This document shows positions 4,497-20,561 of a stretch of DNA of 21,495 nt, one piece after another. The stretch is from positions 1 to 21,495 of the IMG/VR virus record IMGVR_UViG_2778261537_000014; one strand, written 5' to 3'. Made by a program: the position numbers and the translations under genes. Origin of the DNA: a virus (lineage: Duplodnaviria > Heunggongvirae > Uroviricota > Caudoviricetes). Numbering within the stretch: the stretch's first letter is position 1; each line of letters opens with the position of its first letter. Under the pieces are notes generated by a model. The model had not been told where the DNA came from and made no database searches. It saw only the letters and a list, made by a program, of their open reading frames with translations.

Positions 4497-5200
4497 TTGC
4501 CGGTGGCGAGTTGAATAAAAAACAGCTGGCAGAGTTGCGCAAATCACTGGCCAGCATGGAGCTGCCGCCCAAAAAGCGCCAGCGTCTTATCTGGAGGCTG
4601 GCCAAATACGGTGTGATTGCCGCCGCAAAACGGCATGTTCGCAATCAGGAAGCACCGGATGGCCAGAAGTGGCCGGGGCGTAAAACGAAGCGCAAAGGGA
4701 AGATGCTGCGGAACCTGCCAAAACTGCTGCATATCCGTGAAATGCCAGAAATTCAGGCGGTGCGGATTTATTTGCAGGGCGGTGGCTACCGGAACGGGGA
4801 AACGCCGGTACCGGCCGGGACAGTCGGATATGCGCAACAAAACGGGATGCGCGTCAGTGCCAGCCGTCGCAGCCAGCCACGGAAGGCGCAGGCCGGAAAA
4901 ATGGCCACGCCAGCCCAGGCCAAAAAACTGCGGGCGCTGGGGTACCGGGTACGCACCGGTAAACGCTGGAAAAAGCCCACGCTGGGCGAGTTAACCCAAA
5001 CGATGCCATACAGCCGGGCGGGGTTACTGATTCGAAAACTCAGCGGTAAGGCGGTGAAAACCAGCTGGACAGTGGATCTTCCTGCCCGTGTCTTTCTGGG
5101 CATGAGTGACGATGAATTTGATAACGCGCTGGCGCGTCAGCTTCAGGCCATCGGCTTTGGCTGGGATGTTAAGGCGCAGGATATTAAGGGGAAAGCATGA
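4493..5200 (+). CDS. Putative virion morphogenesis / tail completion protein, gpS-like
   Basis: 235 aa with a basic-rich central region. ATGA overlap with the upstream gene and with the downstream sheath-like gene. Call rests on synteny only. Confidence 0.4.
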   Translation: MIAGGELNKKQLAELRKSLASMELPPKKRQRLIWRLAKYGVIAAAKRHVRNQEAPDGQKWPGRKTKRKGKMLRNLPKLLHIREMPEIQAVRIYLQGGGYRNGETPVPAGTVGYAQQNGMRVSASRRSQPRKAQAGKMATPAQAKKLRALGYRVRTGKRWKKPTLGELTQTMPYSRAGLLIRKLSGKAVKTSWTVDLPARVFLGMSDDEFDNALARQLQAIGFGWDVKAQDIKGKA

Positions 5201-6324
5201 CCTGGCCAAACGTGACCGTGAACCAGGTAAACCAGTTGCTGGGTGAAACCAATGAAGTGGAGCGCACGCTGCTGTTTATCGGTACGGGTACCAAAAATGT
5301 GGGGAAAACGCTGGCAGTGAATGCCCAGAGTGATTTTGATGCACTGCTGGGAGAAGGGGAAAGCCCGCTGAAAAACGATGTTCTGGCGGCACTGGCAAAC
5401 GCCGGTCAGAACTGGTGGGCATTTATGCATGTGCTGCCCGCAGATGCTGAGGACGATGCCTGGGTGAAAGCGGTTCTGGCCGCACAGGTGGTGTGTTCGG
5501 TGGAAGGGGTGGTGCTGTCCAGTGATGTGACGGCAAAAGCTCAAGTGAATCAGGCGGCGACGTTACGATCCACGCTGATTTCCAAATATGGGCGCTGGGT
5601 GTGGTTCATCCTGGCCGTGCAGGGAATGCAGGAAGAAGAAGGCCAGGCGGATTACCTGACCCGTGTGTCTGCTATCCAGGACGGTATAGCAGAGAAGGCG
5701 GTGCAGCTGATCCCGCGTCTGTGGGGAAATGAGCCGGGTGTGCTGGCTGGCCGTCTGTGTAGCCGTGCCGTGACTATCGCAGACAGTCCCGCCCGTGTGA
5801 AAACCGGGGCGCTGCTGAATCTGGGCAGTGATGAAATGCCGGTTGATGGTACCGGAGCGGTACTGGAGCTGGCCACGCTTAAGGCACTGGAAGCGCAGCG
5901 CTTTAGTGTGCCGATGTGGTACCCGGATTATGACGGTTTTTACTGGGCTGACGGGCGAACGCTGGATGTGGAAGGCGGCGATTACCAGTCGATTGAAACC
6001 CTGCGTGTTGCCGATAAAGCGGCGCGTCGTGTACGTCTGCTGGCTATCAGCAAAATTGCGGATCGTTCACTCAACAGCACACCGGGCAGCATTGCTGCAC
6101 ACCAGACGCTGTTTGCACGTCCACTGCGTGAAATGTCCACAGCGGCCAGTATCAATGGCGTGTCATTTCCGGGGGAAGTGAAGCCGCCGCAGGATGGTGA
6201 TGTGATCATTGTCTGGAAGAACAAAAAGACGGTGGATATTTATCTGGTGGTACGCACCTGGGAAGTCCCGCTGCAAATCACCATCAGTCTGTTACTGGAT
6301 GCCAGTCTGGAGGCCGCTGCATGA
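5197..6324 (+). CDS. Putative contractile tail sheath protein
   Basis: 375 aa. Immediately upstream of a roughly 150-aa tube-sized gene and downstream of the completion genes. Size is comparable to P2 FI. Call is by synteny; no direct sequence match recalled. Confidence 0.55.
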   Translation: MTWPNVTVNQVNQLLGETNEVERTLLFIGTGTKNVGKTLAVNAQSDFDALLGEGESPLKNDVLAALANAGQNWWAFMHVLPADAEDDAWVKAVLAAQVVCSVEGVVLSSDVTAKAQVNQAATLRSTLISKYGRWVWFILAVQGMQEEEGQADYLTRVSAIQDGIAEKAVQLIPRLWGNEPGVLAGRLCSRAVTIADSPARVKTGALLNLGSDEMPVDGTGAVLELATLKALEAQRFSVPMWYPDYDGFYWADGRTLDVEGGDYQSIETLRVADKAARRVRLLAISKIADRSLNSTPGSIAAHQTLFARPLREMSTAASINGVSFPGEVKPPQDGDVIIVWKNKKTVDIYLVVRTWEVPLQITISLLLDASLEAAA

Positions 6325-6776
6325 GTAAACGTATTTCGGGTATGTCGTTTGATACCTATCTTGACGGCGATCTGATCCACATCGAGAAAATCACGCTCGA
6401 TATCACGGATAACAGCGCCGCCGCCCAGACCCGTGGTGTGCCGGATGGCCATACTGATGGCGATGTGGCCGCAGAGGGAGAAATTGAAGTCAGTTCCAAA
6501 GTGCTGGGCGTACTGACAGCCAAAGCCCGCGCCGCAGGTTCGTGGCGCGGTATTCCTCCACTGGATTTCCTTTTCTATGCCAAAGCGGGCAGCGAAGAAA
6601 TGAAAGTGGAATCGTTCGGCAACAAACTCCAGCTAAGTAATCTGCTGGATATCGATCCCAAGGGCGGCGGTGTGGCGACGCACAAAATCAAATATTTTGT
6701 GACCAGTCCCAAGTTCGTGAACATCAACGGTGTGCCGTATCTGGAAGCGGAAGCCACGGAAAACCTGATCGGATAA
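6321..6776 (+). CDS. Putative tail tube protein
   Basis: 151 aa. ATGA overlap with the sheath-like gene. Size and position are consistent with an FII-like tube protein. Confidence 0.5.
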   Translation: MSKRISGMSFDTYLDGDLIHIEKITLDITDNSAAAQTRGVPDGHTDGDVAAEGEIEVSSKVLGVLTAKARAAGSWRGIPPLDFLFYAKAGSEEMKVESFGNKLQLSNLLDIDPKGGGVATHKIKYFVTSPKFVNINGVPYLEAEATENLIG

Positions 6777-6786
6777 GGAAGCCGGA

Positions 6787-7089
6787 ATGCAGGAACATGA
6801 AAAGAGCCTTTATTCACTGCTGATTATGGGGGCGCTCATTGCTGTTGCGAAGGTGCTGGCCAGTGATGATCCCATTACACCGCGCCTGTTTATCAGCCGT
6901 GTGATCCTGGGCAGTTTTGTTTCAGTCATCGCTGGCGCGGCGCTGATTCAAATCCCGGAGGCCAGCCCGCTGGCTATTCAGGGGCTGGGGGCTGCGCTGG
7001 GTATTGCTGGTTATCAGGCTGTTGAAATGTGGCTGCGCAGACGTGCAGCGGGAAAGAAGAACGGGAGCGTGACAAATGACCCTGAGTGA
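6787..7089 (+). CDS. Holin
   Basis: 100 aa with three hydrophobic helices (LYSLLIMGALIAVAKVLA, ISRVILGSFVSVIAGAALI, LAIQGLGAALGIAGYQAV) and a charged C-terminus. Strong SD AGGAAG 5 nt upstream. Directly precedes the endolysin. Confidence 0.7.
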   Translation: MQEHEKSLYSLLIMGALIAVAKVLASDDPITPRLFISRVILGSFVSVIAGAALIQIPEASPLAIQGLGAALGIAGYQAVEMWLRRRAAGKKNGSVTNDPE

Positions 7090-7417
7090 AAAGCAGCAAC
7101 TGTTTACCGTCATGGTGGCCAACCTGATCCACTGGGCGGAAGAACGAGGCTACCGGCTGACGTTTGGTGAAGCGTACCGCACCCCGGAACAGGCGGCGCT
7201 GAACGCGAAGAAGGGCAGCGGCATTTCTAACAGTCTGCACACCCAGCGTCTGGCCGTGGATTTTAATCTGTTTGTGAATGGCCAGTACCAGACCCGTACA
7301 GAGGACTATCTGCCACTGGGTGAATACTGGGAATCACTGGGCGGAAGCTGGGGCGGGCGCTTCAAATCCAGACCGGATGGTAATCATTTCAGCCTGGAAC
7401 ATAACGGGGTGCGCTGA
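7076..7417 (+). CDS. Endolysin, peptidase M15 family (zinc D-Ala-D-Ala carboxypeptidase / L-Ala-D-Glu peptidase-like)
   Basis: 113 aa. Metal-ligand-like pattern SLHTQRLAVDF ... GGSWGGRF ... DGNHFSLEH, typical of the M15 H-x6-D...H-x-H arrangement. SD GGGAG 8 nt upstream. Overlaps the holin stop. Confidence 0.8.
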   Translation: MTLSEKQQLFTVMVANLIHWAEERGYRLTFGEAYRTPEQAALNAKKGSGISNSLHTQRLAVDFNLFVNGQYQTRTEDYLPLGEYWESLGGSWGGRFKSRPDGNHFSLEHNGVR

Positions 7418-7797
7418 TGAGTCACGCGCAGTGGCTGGTTGTGGTGGCGCTGGCGTTTGTCTGGGGCTGGCTGACAGCTGACTGGCGGCGCGACAGTCTG
7501 GAGCTGGCAATCAATACGGCGGCGCAGGTGGCTGGTAATGAATCGCGAAAGGTTATGCAGGGCATTGCCAGTGATTCCGCCAGGGCGCTGGAAGATAAAC
7601 TGGAGGCGCTAAGAAATGCGCAACCGCGAGAGATCCGCACGGAAGTGCTTAAGCCGGTTTTTACTAACAGGTGCCTGTCTGATGAGTTTGTCAGCATGTA
7701 CAACAGCGCCGTCGCCGGTACCGAACGTGCGTTATCAGGAAAACCTGAAAACACGATGCGCCACGCAGCTGCCGCGCCTGAACGGGGCAACAGGTAA
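7417..7797 (+). CDS. i-spanin, Rz / LysB-like
   Basis: 126 aa with an N-terminal transmembrane segment (WLVVVALAFVWGWL) followed by a charged, helical periplasmic region. Start shares one base with the endolysin stop (TGATG). Contains an embedded lipoprotein ORF in another frame. Confidence 0.6.
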   Translation: MSHAQWLVVVALAFVWGWLTADWRRDSLELAINTAAQVAGNESRKVMQGIASDSARALEDKLEALRNAQPREIRTEVLKPVFTNRCLSDEFVSMYNSAVAGTERALSGKPENTMRHAAAAPERGNR

Positions 7798-7915
7798 AGA
7801 TGCAGCGGAACTGCTGACTGTTTACCTTGAAATATATGGCCAGTGTGCGGCGCGTCATAATCAGTTAGTCGATGAAATTAATTTAAGAGAACGTGTTATT
7901 TATGGAACAAATTAA
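7616..7915 (+). CDS. o-spanin, Rz1 / LysC-like outer-membrane lipoprotein (overlapped architecture)
   Basis: ORF in the +1 frame starting inside the Rz-like gene and running past its stop. Lipobox L-S-A-C after a signal-like segment (FLLTGACLMSLSAC) and a Pro-rich mature N-terminus (CTTAPSPVPN). GGAGG about 10 nt upstream of the ATG. Confidence 0.55.
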   Translation: MRNRERSARKCLSRFLLTGACLMSLSACTTAPSPVPNVRYQENLKTRCATQLPRLNGATGKDAAELLTVYLEIYGQCAARHNQLVDEINLRERVIYGTN

Positions 7916-8159
7916 ACTGAGCGTTTGTGGTGCAGATATTGTTTTTGAACCTAATCAGACTGCTTACAATAAACTGATTAATGAAATGGCAATGGATAAT
8001 AAAGTTGCACCTGCAAATAATTATCTGATGCGTATTGTTACCCCAGAAACGAAAGAAGCACTGATTGACGTATTAAAACGTCCGGGTGCAGCGTTGCAAC
8101 TGGTCAGTAAGGTTAATGATATTTACGCGCCGGAACTGGAGATTGAAGTAAAAAACTGA
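7902..8159 (+). CDS. Tail assembly chaperone (P2 gpE / lambda gpG analogue), zero-frame product
   Basis: Small acidic protein immediately upstream of the tape measure gene. ATG at 7902 is preferred over the ORF-track GTG at 7893. Ends at TGA 8157-8159, directly after the heptamer A_AAA_AAC. Confidence 0.65.
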   Translation: MEQIKLSVCGADIVFEPNQTAYNKLINEMAMDNKVAPANNYLMRIVTPETKEALIDVLKRPGAALQLVSKVNDIYAPELEIEVKN

Positions 8160-8350
8160 CAAAGCGAGTCCATGATATTGAACTAAATGGACTCGAACAG
8201 TATTTAATTCTCCGTCGTCATTATTTACCACATGGCCAGGATTCCGTTGACGATATTGCCGCCGCTATATGGCTGGATAATCGTCACTGGGAATATACGG
8301 GAATAGCCGTAGCTAATGGCGTGGCTAAAGCATTTAAAGGCACTGAATGA
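7902..8350 (+). CDS. Predicted -1 programmed-frameshift fusion chaperone (E+E' / G-T analogue): slip at A_AAA_AAC (8150-8156), then -1 frame open from 8156 to TGA 8348-8350
   Basis: Read directly: the -1 frame after the slippery heptamer has 64 sense codons (LTKRVHDIELNGLEQYLILRRHYLPHGQDSVDDIAAAIWLDNRHWEYTGIAVANGVAKAFKGTE) and ends in ATGA, overlapping the tape-measure start codon at 8347. No start codon exists for this frame. Confidence 0.6.
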
Positions 8351-10314
8351 AACAGTTAGATTTTACATTAAGCCTGATTGATAAATTGTCCCGCCCGTTA
8401 AAACAGGCGCAGGGCAGCGTAACGGGCTTTGCTGAAAAATCAAAAGAAGCCTTTATGCAGATTGGCGGCGGCGTTCTGGGGCTGGCGGGCACAGGGATGG
8501 CCATTAAAGGTGCGCTGATGCCTGCCATTGAAATGTATGACGCGCTGAATGATGCGGCCGCAAAAGGGATCGATGATTCTGCGCTTAAAGCCGTTCAGCG
8601 TGATGCGCTGCGCTTCAGTACAACCTACGGCGCCAGTGCGGTGGAGTTCGTCCAGTCCACGGAAAGTATAAACGCCTCCATTGCCGGACTGACCGGGAAT
8701 GAACTGCCGAAAGTGACGAAAGTCGCCAATACCCTGGCGTTTGCGCTCAAGTCCACCGCAGTAGAAACCGCTGAGTTTATGGGGCAGATGTTCGGTAACT
8801 TTTCCGCCGATGCCAACCGGCTGGGGAAGGTTGAGTTTGCTGAACAACTGGCCGGAAAAATGGTGTTCATGCGCAAAACCTTTGGCACGGAAATGGCCGC
8901 TATCAAGGATTTGATGGAAGGGGCGCGCGGCGTGGGTACTAACTACGGCGTGGGGCTGGATGAACAGCTGGCCGTGCTGGGACAGCTACAGCGGACACTT
9001 GGCACAGAAGCCAGCAGCGCTTATGAGGGCTTTATGACAGGAGCCATTGAGGGCGGTAAAAAGCTGGGGCTGTCCTTCACGGATTCCACCGGCAAAATGC
9101 TGTCCATGCCTGAAATGCTGATCAAGTTACAGGGCAAGTATGGCAAAAGTCTGGAAGGAAATCTGAAGGCCCAGGCTGAACTGGATGCGGCATTTGGAGA
9201 CAGTTCGGCGGTGGTTAAACACCTGTACGGTAATGTGGCATTGCTTCAGCGCAATATCACCGAGCTGGGCGGTGCAGATGGCCTGAAGCGTACCCAGGAA
9301 ATGGCGCAGAAAATGGTGAAGCCGTGGGATCGCTTTGTCGCAATCCTGAAGGCTATCCAGACCGTAATCGGCCTGACGCTGATCCCGGTGCTCTATCCGG
9401 TTCTGAACCGCCTGGCTGATATGGGGCAGACTTTTGCCCGCTGGATGCAGTTGTTTCCCAACATTGCGCGTGTTGTCGGGTATGCGGCAATGGCCTTGCT
9501 CAGCTTTGCGGCTGTGGGTGCTGTCGCCAATATTGTGATGGGGGCCTCTAAATTCATCATGATGGGGTTGCGCGGGATCTGGGTGGCGCTGATGGCCGTC
9601 ACGAAAATTTACACCGCCACTGTCTGGCTGGGAAACATTGCCGTTGTTGCCTGGAACGCCACGCTGAAATTTCTGCGCGGTACGTTGCTGGCGGTTCGTA
9701 TGGCGGCAATGATGGCCGGGATAGGTATCAATCTGATGAGCTGGCCGATCCTGCTGGTGATTGGTGCCGTCGCCTTACTTGCTGCCGGTTGCTGGCTGCT
9801 GATTAAACACTGGGACACGGTAAAGAACGCGGTCATGGATACCGCTGCATTTCAGGCATGCGCCAGGGTAGTGGAATGGCTGGCCGGGGTGTTTACTTCA
9901 GCCTGGCAGTTTATCAGCGAAGGATGGAACAGTTTTATTTCCATGCTGACCGGGTTTTCTCCTTCACAGGCATTAAGCGGTCTGGCCACGGGTATTGTTT
10001 CGTTGTTTGATAATGTCTGGCTGTCCGTTAAAAACGGTTTTCTGAAGTCGTGGAACTGGATTGTTGAGAAACTGAATAAAATCCCCGGTGTGGATATATC
10101 AATGGCAAGTACCACTTCACCACCATTAACTGGAAATACGTTGTCAACGGGTGGAGAGATAAAAGGAATTGATAAGGGCGGGATAAATAAAACAATCAGC
10201 AGCAATTCTAAATCAGTCACTGATAACAGCAAAAAAATAGGGGAGGTTCATTTCCATACCAAAGAAGCGATGTCCCCTGGTCAGTTAATGGAATGGCAGG
10301 AGCTAAATGCGTGA
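8347..10314 (+). CDS. Tail tape measure protein
   Basis: 655 aa, Ala/Gly/Leu-rich with a long central hydrophobic block (for example VLYPVLNRLADMG ... WPILLVIGAVALLAAGCWLLI). Sits immediately downstream of the frameshifted chaperone pair. Confidence 0.8.
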   Translation: MKQLDFTLSLIDKLSRPLKQAQGSVTGFAEKSKEAFMQIGGGVLGLAGTGMAIKGALMPAIEMYDALNDAAAKGIDDSALKAVQRDALRFSTTYGASAVEFVQSTESINASIAGLTGNELPKVTKVANTLAFALKSTAVETAEFMGQMFGNFSADANRLGKVEFAEQLAGKMVFMRKTFGTEMAAIKDLMEGARGVGTNYGVGLDEQLAVLGQLQRTLGTEASSAYEGFMTGAIEGGKKLGLSFTDSTGKMLSMPEMLIKLQGKYGKSLEGNLKAQAELDAAFGDSSAVVKHLYGNVALLQRNITELGGADGLKRTQEMAQKMVKPWDRFVAILKAIQTVIGLTLIPVLYPVLNRLADMGQTFARWMQLFPNIARVVGYAAMALLSFAAVGAVANIVMGASKFIMMGLRGIWVALMAVTKIYTATVWLGNIAVVAWNATLKFLRGTLLAVRMAAMMAGIGINLMSWPILLVIGAVALLAAGCWLLIKHWDTVKNAVMDTAAFQACARVVEWLAGVFTSAWQFISEGWNSFISMLTGFSPSQALSGLATGIVSLFDNVWLSVKNGFLKSWNWIVEKLNKIPGVDISMASTTSPPLTGNTLSTGGEIKGIDKGGINKTISSNSKSVTDNSKKIGEVHFHTKEAMSPGQLMEWQELNA

Positions 10315-10640: not shown

Positions 10641-11821
10641 CGGAAAAACCGCAGGTTGATTTTGAAGAAGTGGTGAAAGCCAGCGGGTTGCCGGTGACGG
10701 AATCGGAAGTGCGCGAACGCTTCAATGCGATAGCGGCCGAGGAAGGGATCATCACTAACACATCCCGCATGTCACCGTTCTGGCGTCTGATTACGGCCAT
10801 TGTGACGGCACCAGTGATGTGGCTGAAGGATGTTCTGGTATTCACCGTGCTGGCCAATATGTTTGTGGCCACGGCCAGCGGGAGCATGTTGCGTCTGCTG
10901 GCCTGGGCGGTAAACGTCACGGCAAAGCCCGCCAGTGCTGCTCAGGGGGTGATCAGGTTCTTTAAAGAAGATGCCAGAGCCGTGGTGACGGTGAAGACCG
11001 GAACGGTTATCCAGACTGAACGCATCAACGGCCGGGTGTATGAGCTGGCGACCACTGACGATGTGGTGATCCCATCCGGCACTGCCAGTGCATTGCTGCC
11101 GGTGAAAGCCACCGGAACCGGGGGAGCCTATAACCTTGCACCAGGGTATTACCGCATTCTGCCGGTGGCCGTGGATGGTATCAGCCATGTGGCCAGTGAG
11201 GAAAACTGGCTGACAGTGCCGGGTGCCGATGAAGAAAGTGATGATGAACTGCGTGAACGCTGCCGCAACCAGTTCAACCTGGTGGGCAATTACCACACGG
11301 ATGCGGTTTACCGTTCAATGATTGCTGGTGTTGCCGGGCTGAGTATCGACCGGATTTTCTTTGAGCATGAAGCGCCGAGGGGACCGGGTACAGCAAACGC
11401 CTATTTATTGCTGGACAGCGGGGTGGCTTCCGCGCCGTTTGTGAATGCGGTGAATGACTACATCAACACGCAGGGGCATCACGGCCACGGTGACGATATG
11501 CAGTGTTACGCCATGCCGGAAACCCTTCACGATCTGGCCGTGACGGTGTACGTCAGAAATCTGACCAACCTGACAGACGACGAACAGAACAACCTGAAGA
11601 ACGGGATTGAAAACCTGATCCGCTGTGCTTTTCGTGAGAATGCAGATTTTGACGTCAGAAAGACGTGGCCATATTCGCGTTTCTCGTTTTCTCAACTGGG
11701 GCGCGAGATCCACAAAACCTTTTCGCTGGCAGATTCACTGTTCTTTTCTCTGGGTGACATTACCAGTGAGCTGAATGTGCCGCGCCTGAAATCACTGGTA
11801 GTGAGTCTTGAGAATGAATGA
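10637..11821 (+). CDS. Baseplate assembly protein J (Baseplate_J family)
   Basis: 394 aa. ATGA overlap with the upstream gene. Central region (VVTVKTGTVIQTERINGRVYELATTDDVVIPSGTASALLPVKATGTGGAYNLAPG) is typical of baseplate J proteins. Followed by a gpI-like gene. Confidence 0.75.
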   Translation: MTEKPQVDFEEVVKASGLPVTESEVRERFNAIAAEEGIITNTSRMSPFWRLITAIVTAPVMWLKDVLVFTVLANMFVATASGSMLRLLAWAVNVTAKPASAAQGVIRFFKEDARAVVTVKTGTVIQTERINGRVYELATTDDVVIPSGTASALLPVKATGTGGAYNLAPGYYRILPVAVDGISHVASEENWLTVPGADEESDDELRERCRNQFNLVGNYHTDAVYRSMIAGVAGLSIDRIFFEHEAPRGPGTANAYLLLDSGVASAPFVNAVNDYINTQGHHGHGDDMQCYAMPETLHDLAVTVYVRNLTNLTDDEQNNLKNGIENLIRCAFRENADFDVRKTWPYSRFSFSQLGREIHKTFSLADSLFFSLGDITSELNVPRLKSLVVSLENE

Positions 11822-12401
11822 GTTCATGAAAAAGCTGACCGGGATGGTGCTTCCTTCCTGGATGAATCGGGGAGAGCCGAACAAGCTGCTGAAAACAGCC
11901 CGGCGATTCTGGGCGGAGGTTTACGGCTGGATAACATGGCCGATGAATCAGTTTGATCCGCTGACCTGCACCCCGGCATTGCTGAACCTGCTGGCCTATG
12001 ACCGAGATATTACCCGTTTTGACGGGGAGCCATTGAGCCTGTTCCGCAAGCGCGTGGCGTACGCCTTTATTAATGCGCGTGATGCCGGTTCGGTTGAGGG
12101 ATTTATCAATATCTTTGAACGGTTGGGCATTGGATATGTGGAACTGCTGGAGCGCCAGCCGGGGATCGACTGGGACGTGATTCAGGTACGTGTCACTGAT
12201 AGCCAGGTTTCGGACAACACGCAACTGATGATTCAGATTATCCGTAAGTACGGGCGAACATGCCGCCGTTATCAGTTTGAAGTGATTACATCAGAGAGCC
12301 TGGCAATTCGGGCGGGATGGGATCAGGGGGAATATGTGGTTTATCCGGCATCATTAAGCGGTACGGAAACACCCAGCGCGACATTCAGCGCGGGTTTGTA
12401 A
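11814..12401 (+). CDS. Tail protein I, gpI-like
   Basis: Motif DPLTCTPALLNLLAYDRDITRFD resembles the P2 gpI NPDTCPAALLPWLAWALSVDRWD-type signature. ATG 11814 overlaps the J stop (ATGAATGA); the ORF track used TTG 11808. Confidence 0.8.
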   Translation: MNEFMKKLTGMVLPSWMNRGEPNKLLKTARRFWAEVYGWITWPMNQFDPLTCTPALLNLLAYDRDITRFDGEPLSLFRKRVAYAFINARDAGSVEGFINIFERLGIGYVELLERQPGIDWDVIQVRVTDSQVSDNTQLMIQIIRKYGRTCRRYQFEVITSESLAIRAGWDQGEYVVYPASLSGTETPSATFSAGL

Positions 12402-12411
12402 GGAGTTTTAT

Positions 12412-13959
12412 ATGTCACAGACAACGATAACGCTGGCGTTTGAGCAGTGGAAAGCGAAACAGGGTACTACGGGTGAGCCTGTTCTATTGGATGAATTTGT
12501 TTTTGCCAGTGTGCCGGGGCTAGACCCTGATGCGCCCATTGATCGGGCTGAGGTGTTGCCGCCTGAATCGCAGATTGTTCATCGCCAGGCAGTCAGCCGC
12601 AAAGGCGTTGTAAATAACAACGCCGTGGTGCATTCCGCTGTTCTGGGCGCTGATGTGGGCGATTTTTCGTTTAACTGGATTGGGTTGGTTAACAAGGCCA
12701 GCGGCACACTGGCAATGATTGTTCATGCGCCGGTACAACAGAAGCTGAAAACAAAAGAAGGGCAGCAAGGTAACGTTCTGACCCGTTCTTTTTTGATGGA
12801 ATACAACGGCGCACAGGCTGAAACCGGAATTAATACACCGGCTGAAACCTGGCAGATTGATTTCACGGCGCGTATGGCCGGAATGGATGAGCGCCAGCGC
12901 CTGGAAAATGTTGATATTTACGGCGCAGCGGCATTCTTTGGGGACGGTTATCTGGTCGGGAAAACGGGTAATCAGTTTTTCGTCACCAAAGGCACCGGAT
13001 ATGTGGCGGGGCTGCGTTCTTCACTGGTTGCAAATCAGGATATTACCGTGACAACTAAGCCTGTAAAAGTCTGGCTGGATGTGTGCTGGACTGGGACGTT
13101 GACTGGTGTCTGGAATGCGCAGAGCAAAATTACTGTAGCGGAAAAACTGACTGATTATGTGCTGGGTGGGGTGCAACATTATGTTTTTGCGCTCGCCAGT
13201 ATTGATTCAGATGGCAATATCACGGATTTACGCCCAAAGGGTACGCTGAATGAACAACAGGCTACTGATGCGCTTAAAAGGCATGAGCAATCCCGGAATC
13301 ACCCCGATGCTTCAATCACAGAAAAGGGGTTTGTACAGTTAAGCAGTGCAACGGATAGCAATTCCGAAAAACTGGCCGCAACGCCCGCTGCGGTTAAGCA
13401 GGTTAACGAGAACGCCAATAAAAGACAGCTGGCGAATCCTCTGTTAACTGCACTTGCCAATCTTGCCACGCAAAAGAACATGTTTCCGTGGTTTACCGGG
13501 GAAAATACCGTTGCTACCAGTGCACTGACTGAATTTGCCCGTGAATTGCTTAGTAAAGGTGATGTGGCATCGGTTCTCAGGCATCTGAAACTGGGGAACG
13601 CCGCTACAAAAGATGTTGGTGTTCTGCCCGGGCAGGTGTTACCCGCGACAGCGTTTACTGCGCATTTGTCTGGATCGGGAATGTGTAAATTCCCGGTTCA
13701 GGCAACATCCGGAGCGTTTATTAATCTGATTTTTATGTGGGGCGTTACCAGTACCCCACCTGGTTCTTCTGCTGGTTACAATTTCCACACGGCTTTTCCC
13801 TATGCCTGTCTGATGGCTATGGGGTGTCGCGGGGCGGATGGTACGAATGCCAGTATGAATGTCAGGGCGCATAACAACACAACAATGATTATTCAGAACT
13901 GGGCACCAGTGGGGTCCGGTTACTGGGAAGACTGCATTTGGTTTGCAATTGGTTACTGA
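12412..13959 (+). CDS. Tail fiber protein, gpH-like
   Basis: 515 aa. Perfect SD AAGGAG. Internal block HEQSRNHPDASITEKGFVQLSSATDSNSEKLAATPAAVK closely matches the P2 gpH repeat HEQSRRHPDASLTAKGFTQLSSATNSTSETLAATPKAVK. Divergent C-terminal domain. Confidence 0.85.
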   Translation: MSQTTITLAFEQWKAKQGTTGEPVLLDEFVFASVPGLDPDAPIDRAEVLPPESQIVHRQAVSRKGVVNNNAVVHSAVLGADVGDFSFNWIGLVNKASGTLAMIVHAPVQQKLKTKEGQQGNVLTRSFLMEYNGAQAETGINTPAETWQIDFTARMAGMDERQRLENVDIYGAAAFFGDGYLVGKTGNQFFVTKGTGYVAGLRSSLVANQDITVTTKPVKVWLDVCWTGTLTGVWNAQSKITVAEKLTDYVLGGVQHYVFALASIDSDGNITDLRPKGTLNEQQATDALKRHEQSRNHPDASITEKGFVQLSSATDSNSEKLAATPAAVKQVNENANKRQLANPLLTALANLATQKNMFPWFTGENTVATSALTEFARELLSKGDVASVLRHLKLGNAATKDVGVLPGQVLPATAFTAHLSGSGMCKFPVQATSGAFINLIFMWGVTSTPPGSSAGYNFHTAFPYACLMAMGCRGADGTNASMNVRAHNNTTMIIQNWAPVGSGYWEDCIWFAIGY

Positions 13960-14407: not shown

Positions 14408-15122
14408 AGCACGTCTGGCCTTCACTGACTCACTGACAGCACTGAATTGTTCGGTCGTTCCGGCGCATCCGTGGATAAACGGACTGGGGCAACAAACGGA
14501 TAATGGGGCATATCTCAGTCCGGTTAATGCTGTCCGCTATCTTGCTGAAAGGCTTGCCGGAACGGGGGGGAATACCGATGTGATGATCATGATGGTGACT
14601 GGTCAGACGCATGAAAACTTTATTACCCGCCTCAACGGTCTGGTAGATGTTTTTCCGGCACCGGCTTTCACTCAGGTCAAGCGCCTGGCGCAATCCGCCG
14701 CGGCGCTGGCCATCGAAAAAATGCAGATCCCTGCGAAAACTGGGGCAGGGTTACCGGTTGCCATTCCTCTGTCGGTGCCAACCACCAGGGCGGCATTGTC
14801 AGCTGCGGCTGTCAGCCAGGCACAAAAAGCGGCCAGCGCAGGTTTCAGCCTGGGCGGGTTAAAGCAGCAACTGGGGGAATTCACGCAGCTGCGTGAAAAA
14901 CTTATCGGTGATGTGGCCAGCGGGCTGGACGATTTACAGGGAAAAAGCGCCAGAGCCTGGGTGTTTACGAGCAACGGCAACACAGCCACCACGCTGCTGG
15001 AGCTGGTAAAAGATATTCCGCAGCCATCAGCCGTTTATGCAGCGGCAGTGATGCTGGTTGGTGACAATCTGGATGGAATAAAGGGAATGATTCATGACTT
15101 CGATCCCAATACTGGCGCTTAA
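14397..15122 (+). CDS. Hypothetical protein (241 aa), function unknown
   Basis: ATG at 14397 with SD GAGGGA 8 nt upstream, overlapping the Tfa-like stop. Ala/Leu/Gly-rich; no motif recognised. The ORF-track start at 14202 is rejected as an upstream extension. Confidence 0.5.
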   Translation: MWREARLAFTDSLTALNCSVVPAHPWINGLGQQTDNGAYLSPVNAVRYLAERLAGTGGNTDVMIMMVTGQTHENFITRLNGLVDVFPAPAFTQVKRLAQSAAALAIEKMQIPAKTGAGLPVAIPLSVPTTRAALSAAAVSQAQKAASAGFSLGGLKQQLGEFTQLREKLIGDVASGLDDLQGKSARAWVFTSNGNTATTLLELVKDIPQPSAVYAAAVMLVGDNLDGIKGMIHDFDPNTGA

Positions 15123-15639
15123 CGGCGAGGCCATACCGCTGAAAAACATGCGTGTGACTGTATCGCAGCAGTTTCAGGATAAAGACCAGTCCGGCCAGAC
15201 AAGCGCCACAACCAAATCAGAACAGGGGGCAAAGGGGAAAGAGCTGCGTATCAGTGGCGAAATTCCGTTTAAAAGCCCGGAGATCCTGAAGCGTATTTTT
15301 GAACTGGCCAGCGCCACGGATGCCGGAGGAAATCGCCAGAAATACCGCGTGGCGCATGAAGTGGCCAGAGCCGTGAATTTTCGCGAGGCGACATTCAGCG
15401 GGATGCTTGATGCTCCGCAGCAGGACGGGAAAATGGCCTGGCTGGTTACGTTCACCCTGGCGGAACATATCAGCGTGCAGGAAAAGCGGGAAGCCAGGGC
15501 AACAGGCAAAACGTCTGCCAAAAAACAGACTGCCGGTAATGCGGGACAATCTGGCGGCCAGAGTGCCGGAGAAGATGAAGAAAAACTGACGTGGTTTGAA
15601 AAACGGGTGCTGAAACCCGTCAATGATGCTTTGGGTTAA
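15094..15639 (+). CDS. Hypothetical protein (181 aa); possibly a gpU-like tail protein by position
   Basis: SD AAGGGA 7 nt upstream. Overlaps the upstream ORF by 29 nt. Low-complexity Gly/Ser/Gln/Ala-rich stretch near the C-terminus. No family recognised. Confidence 0.45.
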   Translation: MTSIPILALNGEAIPLKNMRVTVSQQFQDKDQSGQTSATTKSEQGAKGKELRISGEIPFKSPEILKRIFELASATDAGGNRQKYRVAHEVARAVNFREATFSGMLDAPQQDGKMAWLVTFTLAEHISVQEKREARATGKTSAKKQTAGNAGQSGGQSAGEDEEKLTWFEKRVLKPVNDALG

Positions 15640-18023: not shown

Positions 18024-18638
18024 ATGCCATTTGCTCAAATGATGCGCGATAAATTAACACTAGTAAAACAAGATGGTAGTCGTATTGAAGATCTAAAAGG
18101 AAGTGTTCAGAAAGGGAAAATAATCATCATGAGAGGGGATATCTCGATTGAACCTGACGATGAACTGCATCGTGCAATGCCAGCTGGAAAATTTGAGGAG
18201 TACATTGTTGTTGAGCCGAATTTTCGGCAGGGACTCCATGGGATACCGTCCCATTACCAAGCTGAGGTGAGGAGGAAGACCCAAAGTAACTTTGTTACAG
18301 GAGCAACTCCGGGTGCACATACCATAAATTACAATCTATATGGTGCGAACAGCAGAGTGAACAACGACTCTATCGATAATTCTAGAAACTTCTCGGGAAG
18401 TGATGAAAATATTCGTCAGGTTTTGCAGGTTCTATCATCAGCACGAAAGGATGTCGAGTCTGCCACAATGGAACCAACCGATGTGCAAACAACAACTGCT
18501 ACTCTAGATATCGTCGAAAGCCAAATACAGACACAGGCACCTTCGAAGCCTGTGATTAAGACCTTGTTAGCTGGATTACCTGCTGTTGCGCAGGCATTGC
18601 CTTCGATAGTCAAATTGATTGAATTCTTTAAGGATTAA
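18024..18638 (+). CDS. Hypothetical protein (204 aa) in a visibly AT-rich accessory segment; unknown function, candidate moron or defense gene
   Basis: Strong SD GAGAGGA 5 nt upstream of the ATG. Codon usage and flanks are much more AT-rich than the phage or host genes. Compact N-terminal domain, Asn/Ser/Thr-rich middle, and a C-terminal amphipathic/hydrophobic segment (PVIKTLLAGLPAVAQALPSIVKLIEFF). No family recognised. Confidence 0.6.
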   Translation: MPFAQMMRDKLTLVKQDGSRIEDLKGSVQKGKIIIMRGDISIEPDDELHRAMPAGKFEEYIVVEPNFRQGLHGIPSHYQAEVRRKTQSNFVTGATPGAHTINYNLYGANSRVNNDSIDNSRNFSGSDENIRQVLQVLSSARKDVESATMEPTDVQTTTATLDIVESQIQTQAPSKPVIKTLLAGLPAVAQALPSIVKLIEFFKD

Positions 18639-18875: not shown

Positions 18876-20561
18876 TTATCCTAATCCTGGCCATACCATG
18901 ACGATGATTGTCCCTGCCAGCGTCAGCAGGACGTTGGCGATTGCGTAGGTGCCCGCATAGCCCAGCGCAGGGATGTTACTGCGAGCTGTATCACTGATGA
19001 TCTCCATTGCCGGCGCGCAGGTGCGTGCGCCCATCATTGCGCCGAACAACAGTGCGCGGTTCATTCGCAATACATAAGCACCGAACAAGAAACAGATAAC
19101 CACGGGCACAAGACTGACAATTAATCCGGCAATCAACATCTGACCGCCAATCGCGCCCAGGCCGTTATTAATACCGCTACCGGCGCTCAGACCAACGCCT
19201 GCCATAAACACCATCAAGCCGAACTCTTTCACCATGCTTAATGCACCTTGCGGAATGTAACCGAAGGTCGGGTGGTTAGCACGCATAAAGCCCAGCATAA
19301 TTCCGGCGAATAACAACCCGGCAGCGTTCCCCATGCCGAAACTGAATGTGCTGAACTGGAAGGTGATCATCCCGATCATCAGCCCAATAACAAAGAAGGC
19401 GCAAAATGCCAGCAGGTCAGTGACCTGGCTGTGAATCGAGATAAAGCCGATGCGATCGGCGATGGTTTTTACGCGACGGGCATCACCGCTGACTTGTAAA
19501 ACGTCACCTTTGTTAAGCACGACGTTGTCATCTATCGGCATCTCAATCTGGCTACGAATGACGCGGTTAAGGAAGCAACCGTGATCGGTCAACTTCAGTT
19601 GTGCGAGACGTTTACCTACAGCGTTATGGTTTTTAACGACCACTTCTTCAGTGACGATACGCATGTCGAGAAGGTCACGATCGAAAACTTCTTTACCGTT
19701 ACGGAAGCTGGGATCGAGTCGGGCATGGGCGTCGGGATAGCCTACCAACGCTATTTCATCGCCCATTTGTAGCACGGCATCACCGTCTGGATTTGCCAGA
19801 ATCCCGTTACGTCGAATACGTTCAATGTAGCAGCCGGTTTGTCGATAAATACCCAGTTCACGCAGATTTTTGCCGTCGGTCCAGGCCACCAGCTCCGGGC
19901 CGACGCGATAGGCGCGGATCACCGGTAAATAAACCTTACGGTTGGCATCAGTGTCCAGGCCACGTTCGCGGGCGATTTGCTGGGCGCTGGTCTGTAAGTC
20001 CTGATGCTGCAATTTCGGCAAGTAACGCGCACCAACAATCAAACTCACCAGACCGATTAAATAGGTTAAGGCATACCCGAGGCTCAGATTATCCAGTGCC
20101 AGTGAGAGCTGCCTGCTTTCCATGCCGGAATGACGCAGTGTATCGCCAGCACCGACCAGAACCGGTGTCGACGTCATAGAGCCTGCTAACATACCGGCCG
20201 TCAGGCCAATATCCCAGCCAAACAGCTTACCTAACCCTAAGGCGATCACCAGCGCACTGCCAACCATCACCAGTGCTAACATTAGGTAATTTTTCCCATC
20301 GCGAAAAAAAATGGAAAAAAAGTTCGGTCCGGCTTCGACCCCGACGCAGAAAATAAACAGCATAAAGCCAAGATTAAGCGCATCGGTGTTAATGCTGAAA
20401 TGTTGTTGGCCTAATAACAGCGATACGACTAAAACGCCAATGGAATTACCCAGTTGGATCGAACCAAGTCGTAACTTTCCGAGACATAGCCCAAGCGCGA
20501 GGACCACAAATAATAACAGAATGTAATTCCCATTTAACAATTCGGCGACGTTTATATTCAC
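18876..20561 (-). CDS. ybjL: Putative AAE-family transporter YbjL
   Basis: 561-aa polytopic membrane protein with paired transmembrane blocks flanking central cytoplasmic regions. Recognised as E. coli YbjL from memory. GTG start at 20561. Confidence 0.85.

Follow-up and report, generated by a model that had tools for sequence, protein, structure and literature searches.

The −1 frameshift that joins E to E′ in phage P2 was reportedly described by Christie et al. 2002. According to the P2 record (NC_001895), the shift occurs at position 19685 in the heptamer T_TTT_TTG and the resulting E+E′ ends 8 bases into gene T; the frameshift has been described and no hairpin is reported downstream of the P2 heptamer (PMC3091744). 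In lambda, the gpG/gpGT heptamer is G_GGA_AAG (Levin et al. 1993; Xu et al. 2004, 2013, 2014, summarised in PMC5009743). The G/GT ratio is 30:1, the domain common to both products binds the tape-measure protein and the rare C-terminal domain binds the tube subunit (PMC5009743). The shiftiness of A-rich heptamers is also documented, A_AAA_AAC being far less shifty than A_AAA_AAG in E. coli, and the IS1 family uses frameshifting (PMC5009743).

The stretch of DNA analysed here, all 21,495 nt of which we refer to as the window, is from an HP1-like prophage of E. coli, of the ESSI-2/Quadragintavirus type within the Peduoviridae. Its closest phage records are those of the E. coli ESSI2_ev phages (Quadragintavirus, Peduoviridae), with 86–87% DNA identity, and the region is present in five E. 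coli chromosomes at 97%. The head and neck genes of the phage encode a scaffold, a capsid protein, a small terminase, an adaptor and a terminator. The tail genes run in the order sheath (DUF2586; 5197–6324), tube (Phage_HP1_Orf24; 6321–6776), lysis cassette (6787–7915), chaperone (7902–8159), chaperone extension (to 8350) and tape measure (8347–10314), and the downstream tail genes comprise, with the tape measure, those for the baseplate (including HP1_ORF34) and the fibre. The chaperone pair therefore occupies the place of lambda G/GT, between the tube and tape-measure genes and directly upstream of the latter.

The lysis cassette is complete and comprises a holin (6787–7089), an M15 endolysin (7076–7417), an Rz-like spanin (7417–7797) and a LysC/Rz1-like ORF (7616–7915) that overlaps the gene of the Rz-like spanin and, by 14 bases, the start of the chaperone gene. 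A lysis cassette between the tube and chaperone genes also occurs in HP1, K139 and their relatives, unlike in P2. Elsewhere in the window, a minus-strand ORF (18876–20561) encodes an Asp-Al_Ex/TrkA_C transporter of 561 aa. This ORF is probably a host chromosomal gene, so one end of the prophage probably lies between about 17343 and 18875. At the prophage edge, an ORF of 204 aa (18024–18638) had no Pfam match and weakly matched PDC-M14B, a candidate defence family in PADLOC (E = 4e-5).

The tail assembly chaperone gene of this HP1-like prophage very probably undergoes a programmed −1 ribosomal frameshift. The features on which this reading draws are as follows:

7902–8159, + strand: tail assembly chaperone gene, encoding the short G-like product of 85 aa and 9.5 kDa (Pfam Phage_TAC_10)
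8144–8146, + strand: TGA, last −1 frame stop upstream of the shift site, from translation of the −1 frame
8150–8156, + strand: slippery heptamer A_AAA_AAC, in X_XXY_YYZ phase, read from the sequence
8156–8350, + strand: −1 extension, a T-like/E′-like domain of 64 codons plus TGA, accessible by frameshift only
8157–8159, + strand: TGA, 0-frame stop adjoining the heptamer, read from the sequence
8165–8195, + strand: RNA hairpin, candidate frameshift stimulator, with arms 8165–8173 and 8187–8195, 9 bp and a 13-nt loop
8336–8340, + strand: AAAGG, Shine–Dalgarno-like sequence with an inferred role for the tape-measure gene
8347–10314, + strand: tape measure protein gene, 655 aa (Pfam PhageMin_Tail; phrog_28, tail length tape measure protein)

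The chaperone ORF starts at ATG 7902, an alternative in-frame GTG at 7893 being possible, and ends with GTA (8148), AAA (8151), AAC (8154) and TGA (8157–8159). The initial annotation had located A_AAA_AAC at 8150–8156 in this GTA AAA AAC TGA terminus, and its coordinates are right. The −1 frame is shut by TGA 8144–8146 and opens at 8147, which confines the change of frame to 8147–8156. Over these 10 nt only, both frames are open, and the heptamer lies inside them; the overlap of the two frames is also 10 nt in most relatives. The first −1 codon after the slip is CTG 8156–8158, which begins a run of 64 sense codons that ends at TGA 8348–8350. Both the length of this run and the overlap of its stop with the tape-measure start as ATGA (ATG 8347–8349) agree with what had first been described, and the −1 ORF exactly spans the gap to the ATG. 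In relatives, the same ATGA overlap is found or the tape-measure start lies within a few bases. The predicted fusion comprises 149 aa (16.8 kDa), close to the roughly 150 aa first estimated, as against 85 aa (9.5 kDa) for the short form.

The 5515 codons of the window's genes contain 18 in-phase X_XXY_YYZ heptamers, and the chance that a −1 frame lacks a stop over 66 codons is ~0.01. It is unlikely that a heptamer and an open −1 frame coincide here by chance, and the comparative evidence given below is decisive. Other in-phase heptamers are present in the holin gene (G_GGA_AAG, 7050–7056) and the fibre gene (T_TTT_TTG, 12789–12795), as well as at the ends of two ORFs: G_GGT_TTG at 12392–12398 in ORF 11808–12401 and T_TTG_GGT at 15630–15636 in ORF 15094–15639. 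None of these lies where a gene ends and an open −1 ORF leads on to the next, and they are probably due to chance.

For the comparison with relatives, we used 80 loci from viral contigs, 54 from bacterial genomes (searched with a chaperone profile) and 17 from annotated public records (searched with tblastn), the last including HP1, K139, PV94, phiO18P, F108, SMHB1, C5a, phi3, ACA1, yong1 and SI7. Both parts of the gene were found in 151 loci, representing 138 distinct sequences, whose chaperones share from 100% to 28% identity with that of the window. In all 138, a DUF6890 homologue lies in the −1 frame of the chaperone gene. HP1, HP2, K139, F108 and phiO18P are among them, and the window shares with these five the adjacent Phage_TAC_10 and DUF6890 pair of the HP1 group, with DUF6890 at −1. 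An in-phase A_AAA_AAN heptamer is likewise present in 138 of 138 (AAC in 127, AAA in nine and AAG in two), and the codon before it has A as its last base throughout: GTA in 111, ATA in 20 and CTA in seven, encoding Val, Ile and Leu, respectively. The HP1 gene, for example, reads ...ACC GTA AAA AAC TAA, with the extension next in the −1 frame. The initial annotation had held that a heptamer or extension frame not conserved in relatives would speak against a frameshift; the opposite was found, both being kept in all 138.

At the protein level, the chaperone ORF of the window matches Pfam Phage_TAC_10 (E = 5e-34), and the extension matches Pfam DUF6890 (E = 2e-23 to 3e-24) and phrog_7050 (E = 2e-22). 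Homologues of the extension were detected by tblastn in 73 phage records, and the protein is conserved across phages of Enterobacterales, Vibrionaceae, Pasteurellaceae, Aeromonas, Pseudoalteromonas and Pseudomonas. Two loci, L083 and L120, encode Enterobacterales-like chaperones (86% and 56% identity, respectively) in metagenome bins labelled Bacillota and Bacillales. These host labels are probably binning or labelling errors and not a real host range.

The selective constraints on the two frames were evaluated in 120 distinct sequences of at least 53% identity. The three synonymous positions of the heptamer were unchanged in 120/120, 120/120 and 119/120 sequences, and the adjacent third positions vary freely. 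In the last 20 chaperone codons, variability at the three codon positions was 0.14, 0.08 and 0.37 when read in the 0 frame; in the first 17 extension codons, it was 0.14, 0.15 and 0.37 when read in the −1 frame. These patterns indicate that the frame selected for protein switches exactly at the heptamer. Along the extension, the numbers of variable columns at −1 frame codon positions 1, 2 and 3 were 25, 20 and 59, respectively, in the 63 distinct sequences from the loci collected first. The extension is thus a conserved domain on which purifying selection acts in the −1 frame. As in the lambda G/GT type, the window and its relatives combine an in-phase heptamer in the overlap, a downstream ORF without a start, an arrangement kept despite divergence and selection on both frames. 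Pairs of the lambda type also produce, at a fixed ratio, two proteins with the same N-terminus, which tail assembly requires but which virions lack.

Open −1 runs of at least 64 codons are present elsewhere in the window, accounting for nine of 394, and the −1 ORF might on that count be a chance open frame or a decaying remnant, with the 85-aa chaperone alone being made. The comparative data, namely a Pfam match with E of about 1e-23, broad conservation of the protein and codon-position selection, refute this explanation, to which we give almost no credence.

We then considered whether DUF6890 is an independent small gene, translated from CTG 8156 or ATT 8207 or by reinitiation after TGA 8157. 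Database annotation takes this form: in E. coli genomes, RefSeq/PGAP gives the 'DUF6890 family protein' a CDS of its own, and there are many such entries, of 45–76 aa. Moreover, CTG 8156–8158 overlaps the TGA as CTGA, which resembles stop–start coupling, and some entries begin at the CTG that overlaps the chaperone stop. The annotated starts are nevertheless inconsistent, those checked in the DNA being CTG, ATT or similar; the E. coli locus of 97% identity has ATT as its start (window positions 8207–8350; positions 2108–2251 of locus L001). Neither codon is a dependable start, as many relatives have CTA or ATA in place of the CTG, the ATT is not conserved, and no Shine–Dalgarno sequence or start is conserved for DUF6890. 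Furthermore, residues upstream of the ATT are conserved, and purifying selection acts from the first codon past the heptamer. An independent gene would also leave the invariant in-phase heptamer and its frozen synonymous sites unexplained. We therefore consider an independent origin of DUF6890 translation very improbable.

The search for conventional start codons gave a concordant picture. The first ATG, GTG or TTG in the extension of the window is GTG 8321, nine codons before its end, and none is conserved in the 138 loci, in keeping with the original description of an extension that lacks a start of its own. ATG, GTG and TTG are absent from the first 45 extension codons in 73 of the 138 loci and scattered in position in the others. 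Together with the −1 extension domain and the heptamer kept in phase in 138 of 138 loci, the lack of a conserved start lends sequence-level support to the programmed −1 frameshift that the initial annotation had proposed.

Annotation of the extension in public databases varies. The stand-alone DUF6890 calls constitute a systematic mis-annotation in many genomes of Enterobacterales, Vibrio, Aeromonas and Pasteurellaceae, and several phage records have a bare 190-base gap where the extension lies. No entry combining the chaperone and DUF6890 domains was present among the best matches of either protein search, and NCBIfam contained no model for the fusion of the window or for P2 E+E′. The record of a distant relative, Pseudoalteromonas phage ACA1 (GenBank OR438928), contains a joined CDS, described as a 'projected programmed frameshift analogous to that in phage P2', which is a prediction by its depositors. 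A literature search, the coverage of which excluded Xu et al. 2004 and Christie et al. 2002, returned no explicit report of a frameshift in HP1, K139 or DUF6890.

The 0-frame stop adjoins the heptamer in 135 of the 138 distinct loci, as TGA in 73, TAA in 52 and TAG in 10. The third position of the first extension codon (CTN) is four-fold degenerate and yet is occupied exclusively by G or A; this purine-only Leu site preserves the 0-frame stop. In the three exceptions, comprising two Pseudomonas phages with A_AAA_AAG and ACA1, the stop occurs 21 nt later. It is conceivable, if rather doubtful, that selection maintains the abutting stop as an element of the frameshift signal, a '−1 shifty stop'. 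In such a signal, an A site awaiting release factor would give the tRNAs on A_AAA_AAC extra time to slip. Slow A-site decoding weighs more for +1 than for −1 shifts, and pea enation mosaic virus has a −1 shift with an essential nearby stop (PMC5009743). Alternatively, the stop may have been retained only because the short chaperone has to end there.

We examined the RNA downstream of the heptamer for structure, a check proposed in the initial annotation, and found a hairpin separated from the heptamer by an 8-nt spacer. Its conserved 8-bp core pairs 8165–8172 with 8188–8195. The predicted free energy of the hairpin is −14 kcal/mol, corresponding to a z-score of −6.4 against dinucleotide shuffles of the 44-nt segment. 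Among 3000 synonymous recodings encoding the same peptide, 0.17% folded as stably. When compared with the local genomic background, the hairpin is not unusually stable, since 13% of the 45-nt windows within 900 bases on either side in L001, a nearly identical relative, are as stable.

Comparative data provided further information on the hairpin. Across the window's clade, represented by 43 distinct sequences with a chaperone identity of 71% or more, 91.7% of the hairpin cells were paired, as against 8–39% in slid controls. At 8172:8188, the pair is A-U in 21 sequences, G-C in 21 and G-U in one, a synonymous change in an Asn codon; one more pair has a double change and several have G-U substitutions. 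The hairpin is thus conserved with covariation, in the window's clade only. An unusually stable fold follows the heptamer in 3–4 of 21 clade representatives, and the hairpins differ between clades; a downstream structure common to the whole family is ruled out on these grounds. HP1, K139 and the Serratia and Xenorhabdus prophages have no notable fold after the heptamer, and the absence of the hairpin from many relatives, these phages included, indicates that it is not required family-wide. Five Vibrio/Salinivibrio phages with A_AAA_AAA (L140, L148, L152, L145 and L142) have, within the first 50 nt past the heptamer, hairpins of −17 to −26 kcal/mol that begin 2–8 nt after it and the sequences of which are unrelated to that of the window hairpin. 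The distribution of these structures suggests clade-specific tuning of shift efficiency.

Other candidate stimulators were also evaluated. A Shine–Dalgarno-like GGAG (8138–8141) lies 8 nt from the heptamer, outside the about 10–14 nt upstream that characterizes dnaX/IS3-type stimulators. We rejected it as a stimulator, as it is not conserved: the corresponding sequence is GGAA, GGAT or GGAC in 104 of 120 related sequences. A search of Rfam with positions 8050–8400 yielded no match.

In bacteria, transcriptional realignment has been documented as another route besides ribosomal frameshifting (PMC5009743, citing Larsen et al. 2000). Applied to the window, RNA polymerase would stutter on the A6 run (8150–8155) and add one A to some transcripts, yielding a product with ...EVKK-LTKR..., one residue different from the ribosomal product. 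Known productive slippage in bacteria occurs on A or T homopolymers of at least about nine residues, or on shorter runs next to which the nascent RNA forms a hairpin upstream. Six or seven A residues do form the invariant core of the site in 138 of 138 loci, and slippage would need to supply only a low level of product. However, the run never exceeds seven in these loci and is six in the window, and the conserved hairpin lies downstream of it, at the 8-nt spacing of a ribosomal signal. The Pseudomonas relatives, moreover, have A_AAA_AAG, the optimal ribosomal heptamer. Finally, the characterised tail chaperone shifts are ribosomal, both in lambda (PMC5009743) and in P2 (P2 record; PMC3091744). 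The short run, the location of the hairpin downstream of it and the A_AAA_AAG variants thus weigh against slippage of RNA polymerase relative to a ribosomal shift, and we consider such slippage improbable.

To characterize the two products, the chaperone and extension halves were modelled separately. The chaperone fold matches that of the HK97 tail assembly chaperone, as for chaperones of the G type. The AlphaFold model of the extension consists of three helices and has a pLDDT of 90.6. A Foldseek comparison of the extension model with viral structures gave no significant match, the best E being 0.86; the fold is accordingly uninformative as to the partner of the T-like domain. At the C-terminus of the extension, AAAGG 8336–8340 is embedded in the conserved ...AFKG codons, and FKG is conserved in the extension alignments. 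As this likely Shine–Dalgarno sequence of the tape-measure gene lies inside the AFKG codons, conservation of the motif may in part reflect a constraint at the RNA level.

In the ribosomal mechanism that we propose, most ribosomes would translate 7902–8156 and terminate at TGA 8157, yielding the 85-aa chaperone. In a minority, tRNA-Lys and tRNA-Asn on A_AAA_AAC would re-pair with AAA_AAA, one base back, and the slipped ribosomes would read from CTG 8156 and terminate at TGA 8348, producing the 149-aa Phage_TAC_10–DUF6890 fusion. The slip is probably aided by the hairpin 8 nt downstream in the window's clade and possibly by the stop that follows the heptamer into the A site. If the division of labour is as in lambda, the tape-measure protein, whose gene comes next downstream, would be coated by the N-terminal domain that both forms have in common, and recruitment of the tail tube subunit would fall to the rare C-terminal domain. 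The efficiency of the shift would then set the ratio of the short and fused forms. Since A_AAA_AAC is a weak shifter in E. coli, the shift is expected to be of low efficiency and the fusion to constitute a low percentage of the product; this low shiftiness fits the few-percent levels typical of the tail chaperone system, such as the 30:1 of lambda. We infer that ribosomes, not RNA polymerase, slip, and infer in the same way the efficiency of the shift and the assembly role of each domain, both roles being carried over from lambda.

If the abutting stop does belong to the signal, different clades would tune efficiency differently. The window's clade would combine a weak heptamer with a stop and a hairpin, the Vibrio phages would combine A_AAA_AAA with a stop and a very strong hairpin, and the Pseudomonas phages would rely on the optimal A_AAA_AAG with no adjoining stop. 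Within the family, heptamers, stops and hairpins occur in naturally varying combinations, which could be used to study how weak slippery sites are tuned in bacteria.

The finding is real but ordinary: the probable frameshift of the window is unannotated here, and its mechanism is well known in tailed phages. The finding leaves knowledge of phage tail assembly and of recoding unchanged. Its main value is for annotation, because hundreds of RefSeq DUF6890 entries have invented CTG or ATT starts, or the extension is represented by gaps. DUF6890/phrog_7050 is to be regarded as the frameshift-encoded C-terminal domain of the HP1-group chaperone and not as a set of free-standing small proteins. Recognition of the frameshift gives a function to DUF6890 and completes the tail module of a whole branch of the Peduoviridae.

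The initial annotation had likened the locus to both G/GT of lambda and E/E′ of P2. The likeness in arrangement and in inferred function is borne out, and sequence similarity to the P2 proteins was not found. In the comparison with P2 E/E′ that had been suggested as a check, BLASTP gave an E value of 0.16 and hhalign gave probabilities of 0.4% and 0.1%, the P2 side of the latter being a single sequence and thus weak for very remote homology. A match of 'SVDD' to the P2 proteins that had been noticed by eye is unsupported by the profile and BLAST comparisons. Assignment of the window pair to the P2 families was likewise rejected, as its hits are to Phage_TAC_10 and DUF6890 only, whereas the P2 proteins are Phage_TAC_7 and Phage_P2_GpE. 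With no detectable similarity to the P2 proteins, the window pair would function as E/E+E′ does while lying outside those families.

The systems nonetheless share a number of properties. P2 and the window phage both belong to the Peduoviridae, and in each the pair lies upstream of the tape-measure gene, the shift is in the −1 direction, the products are of similar length (91 and 142 aa in P2; 85 and 149 aa in the window) and the extension stop overlaps the tape-measure start. They differ in that the P2 heptamer, T_TTT_TTG, occurs six codons before the E stop, whereas A_AAA_AAC in the window adjoins the stop, and in that the P2 chaperone gene directly follows the tube gene, whereas the lysis cassette intervenes in the window. 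The gp36/gp36a pair of ACA1 is homologous to that of the window in both the chaperone (37% identity) and the extension (29%), and its shift is predicted at the homologous A-run. By contrast with the window, the ACA1 heptamer is A_AAA_AAA and its 0-frame stop lies 21 nt further downstream.

The heptamer of the window is the same as that of the IS1 insA-insB′ frameshift. According to Sekine and Ohtsubo 1989, that shift reportedly occurs at A_AAA_AAC in E. coli with low efficiency, fusing two ORFs. Its product is a transposase instead of a virion assembly factor, and the surrounding sequence bears no relation to that of the window. Lambda is a siphovirus, whereas the window phage is contractile-tailed. 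Relative to lambda, the window locus is further distinguished by a heptamer, A_AAA_AAC, that adjoins the stop, by a downstream hairpin conserved in its clade, and by the Pfam families of its two domains, Phage_TAC_10 and DUF6890.
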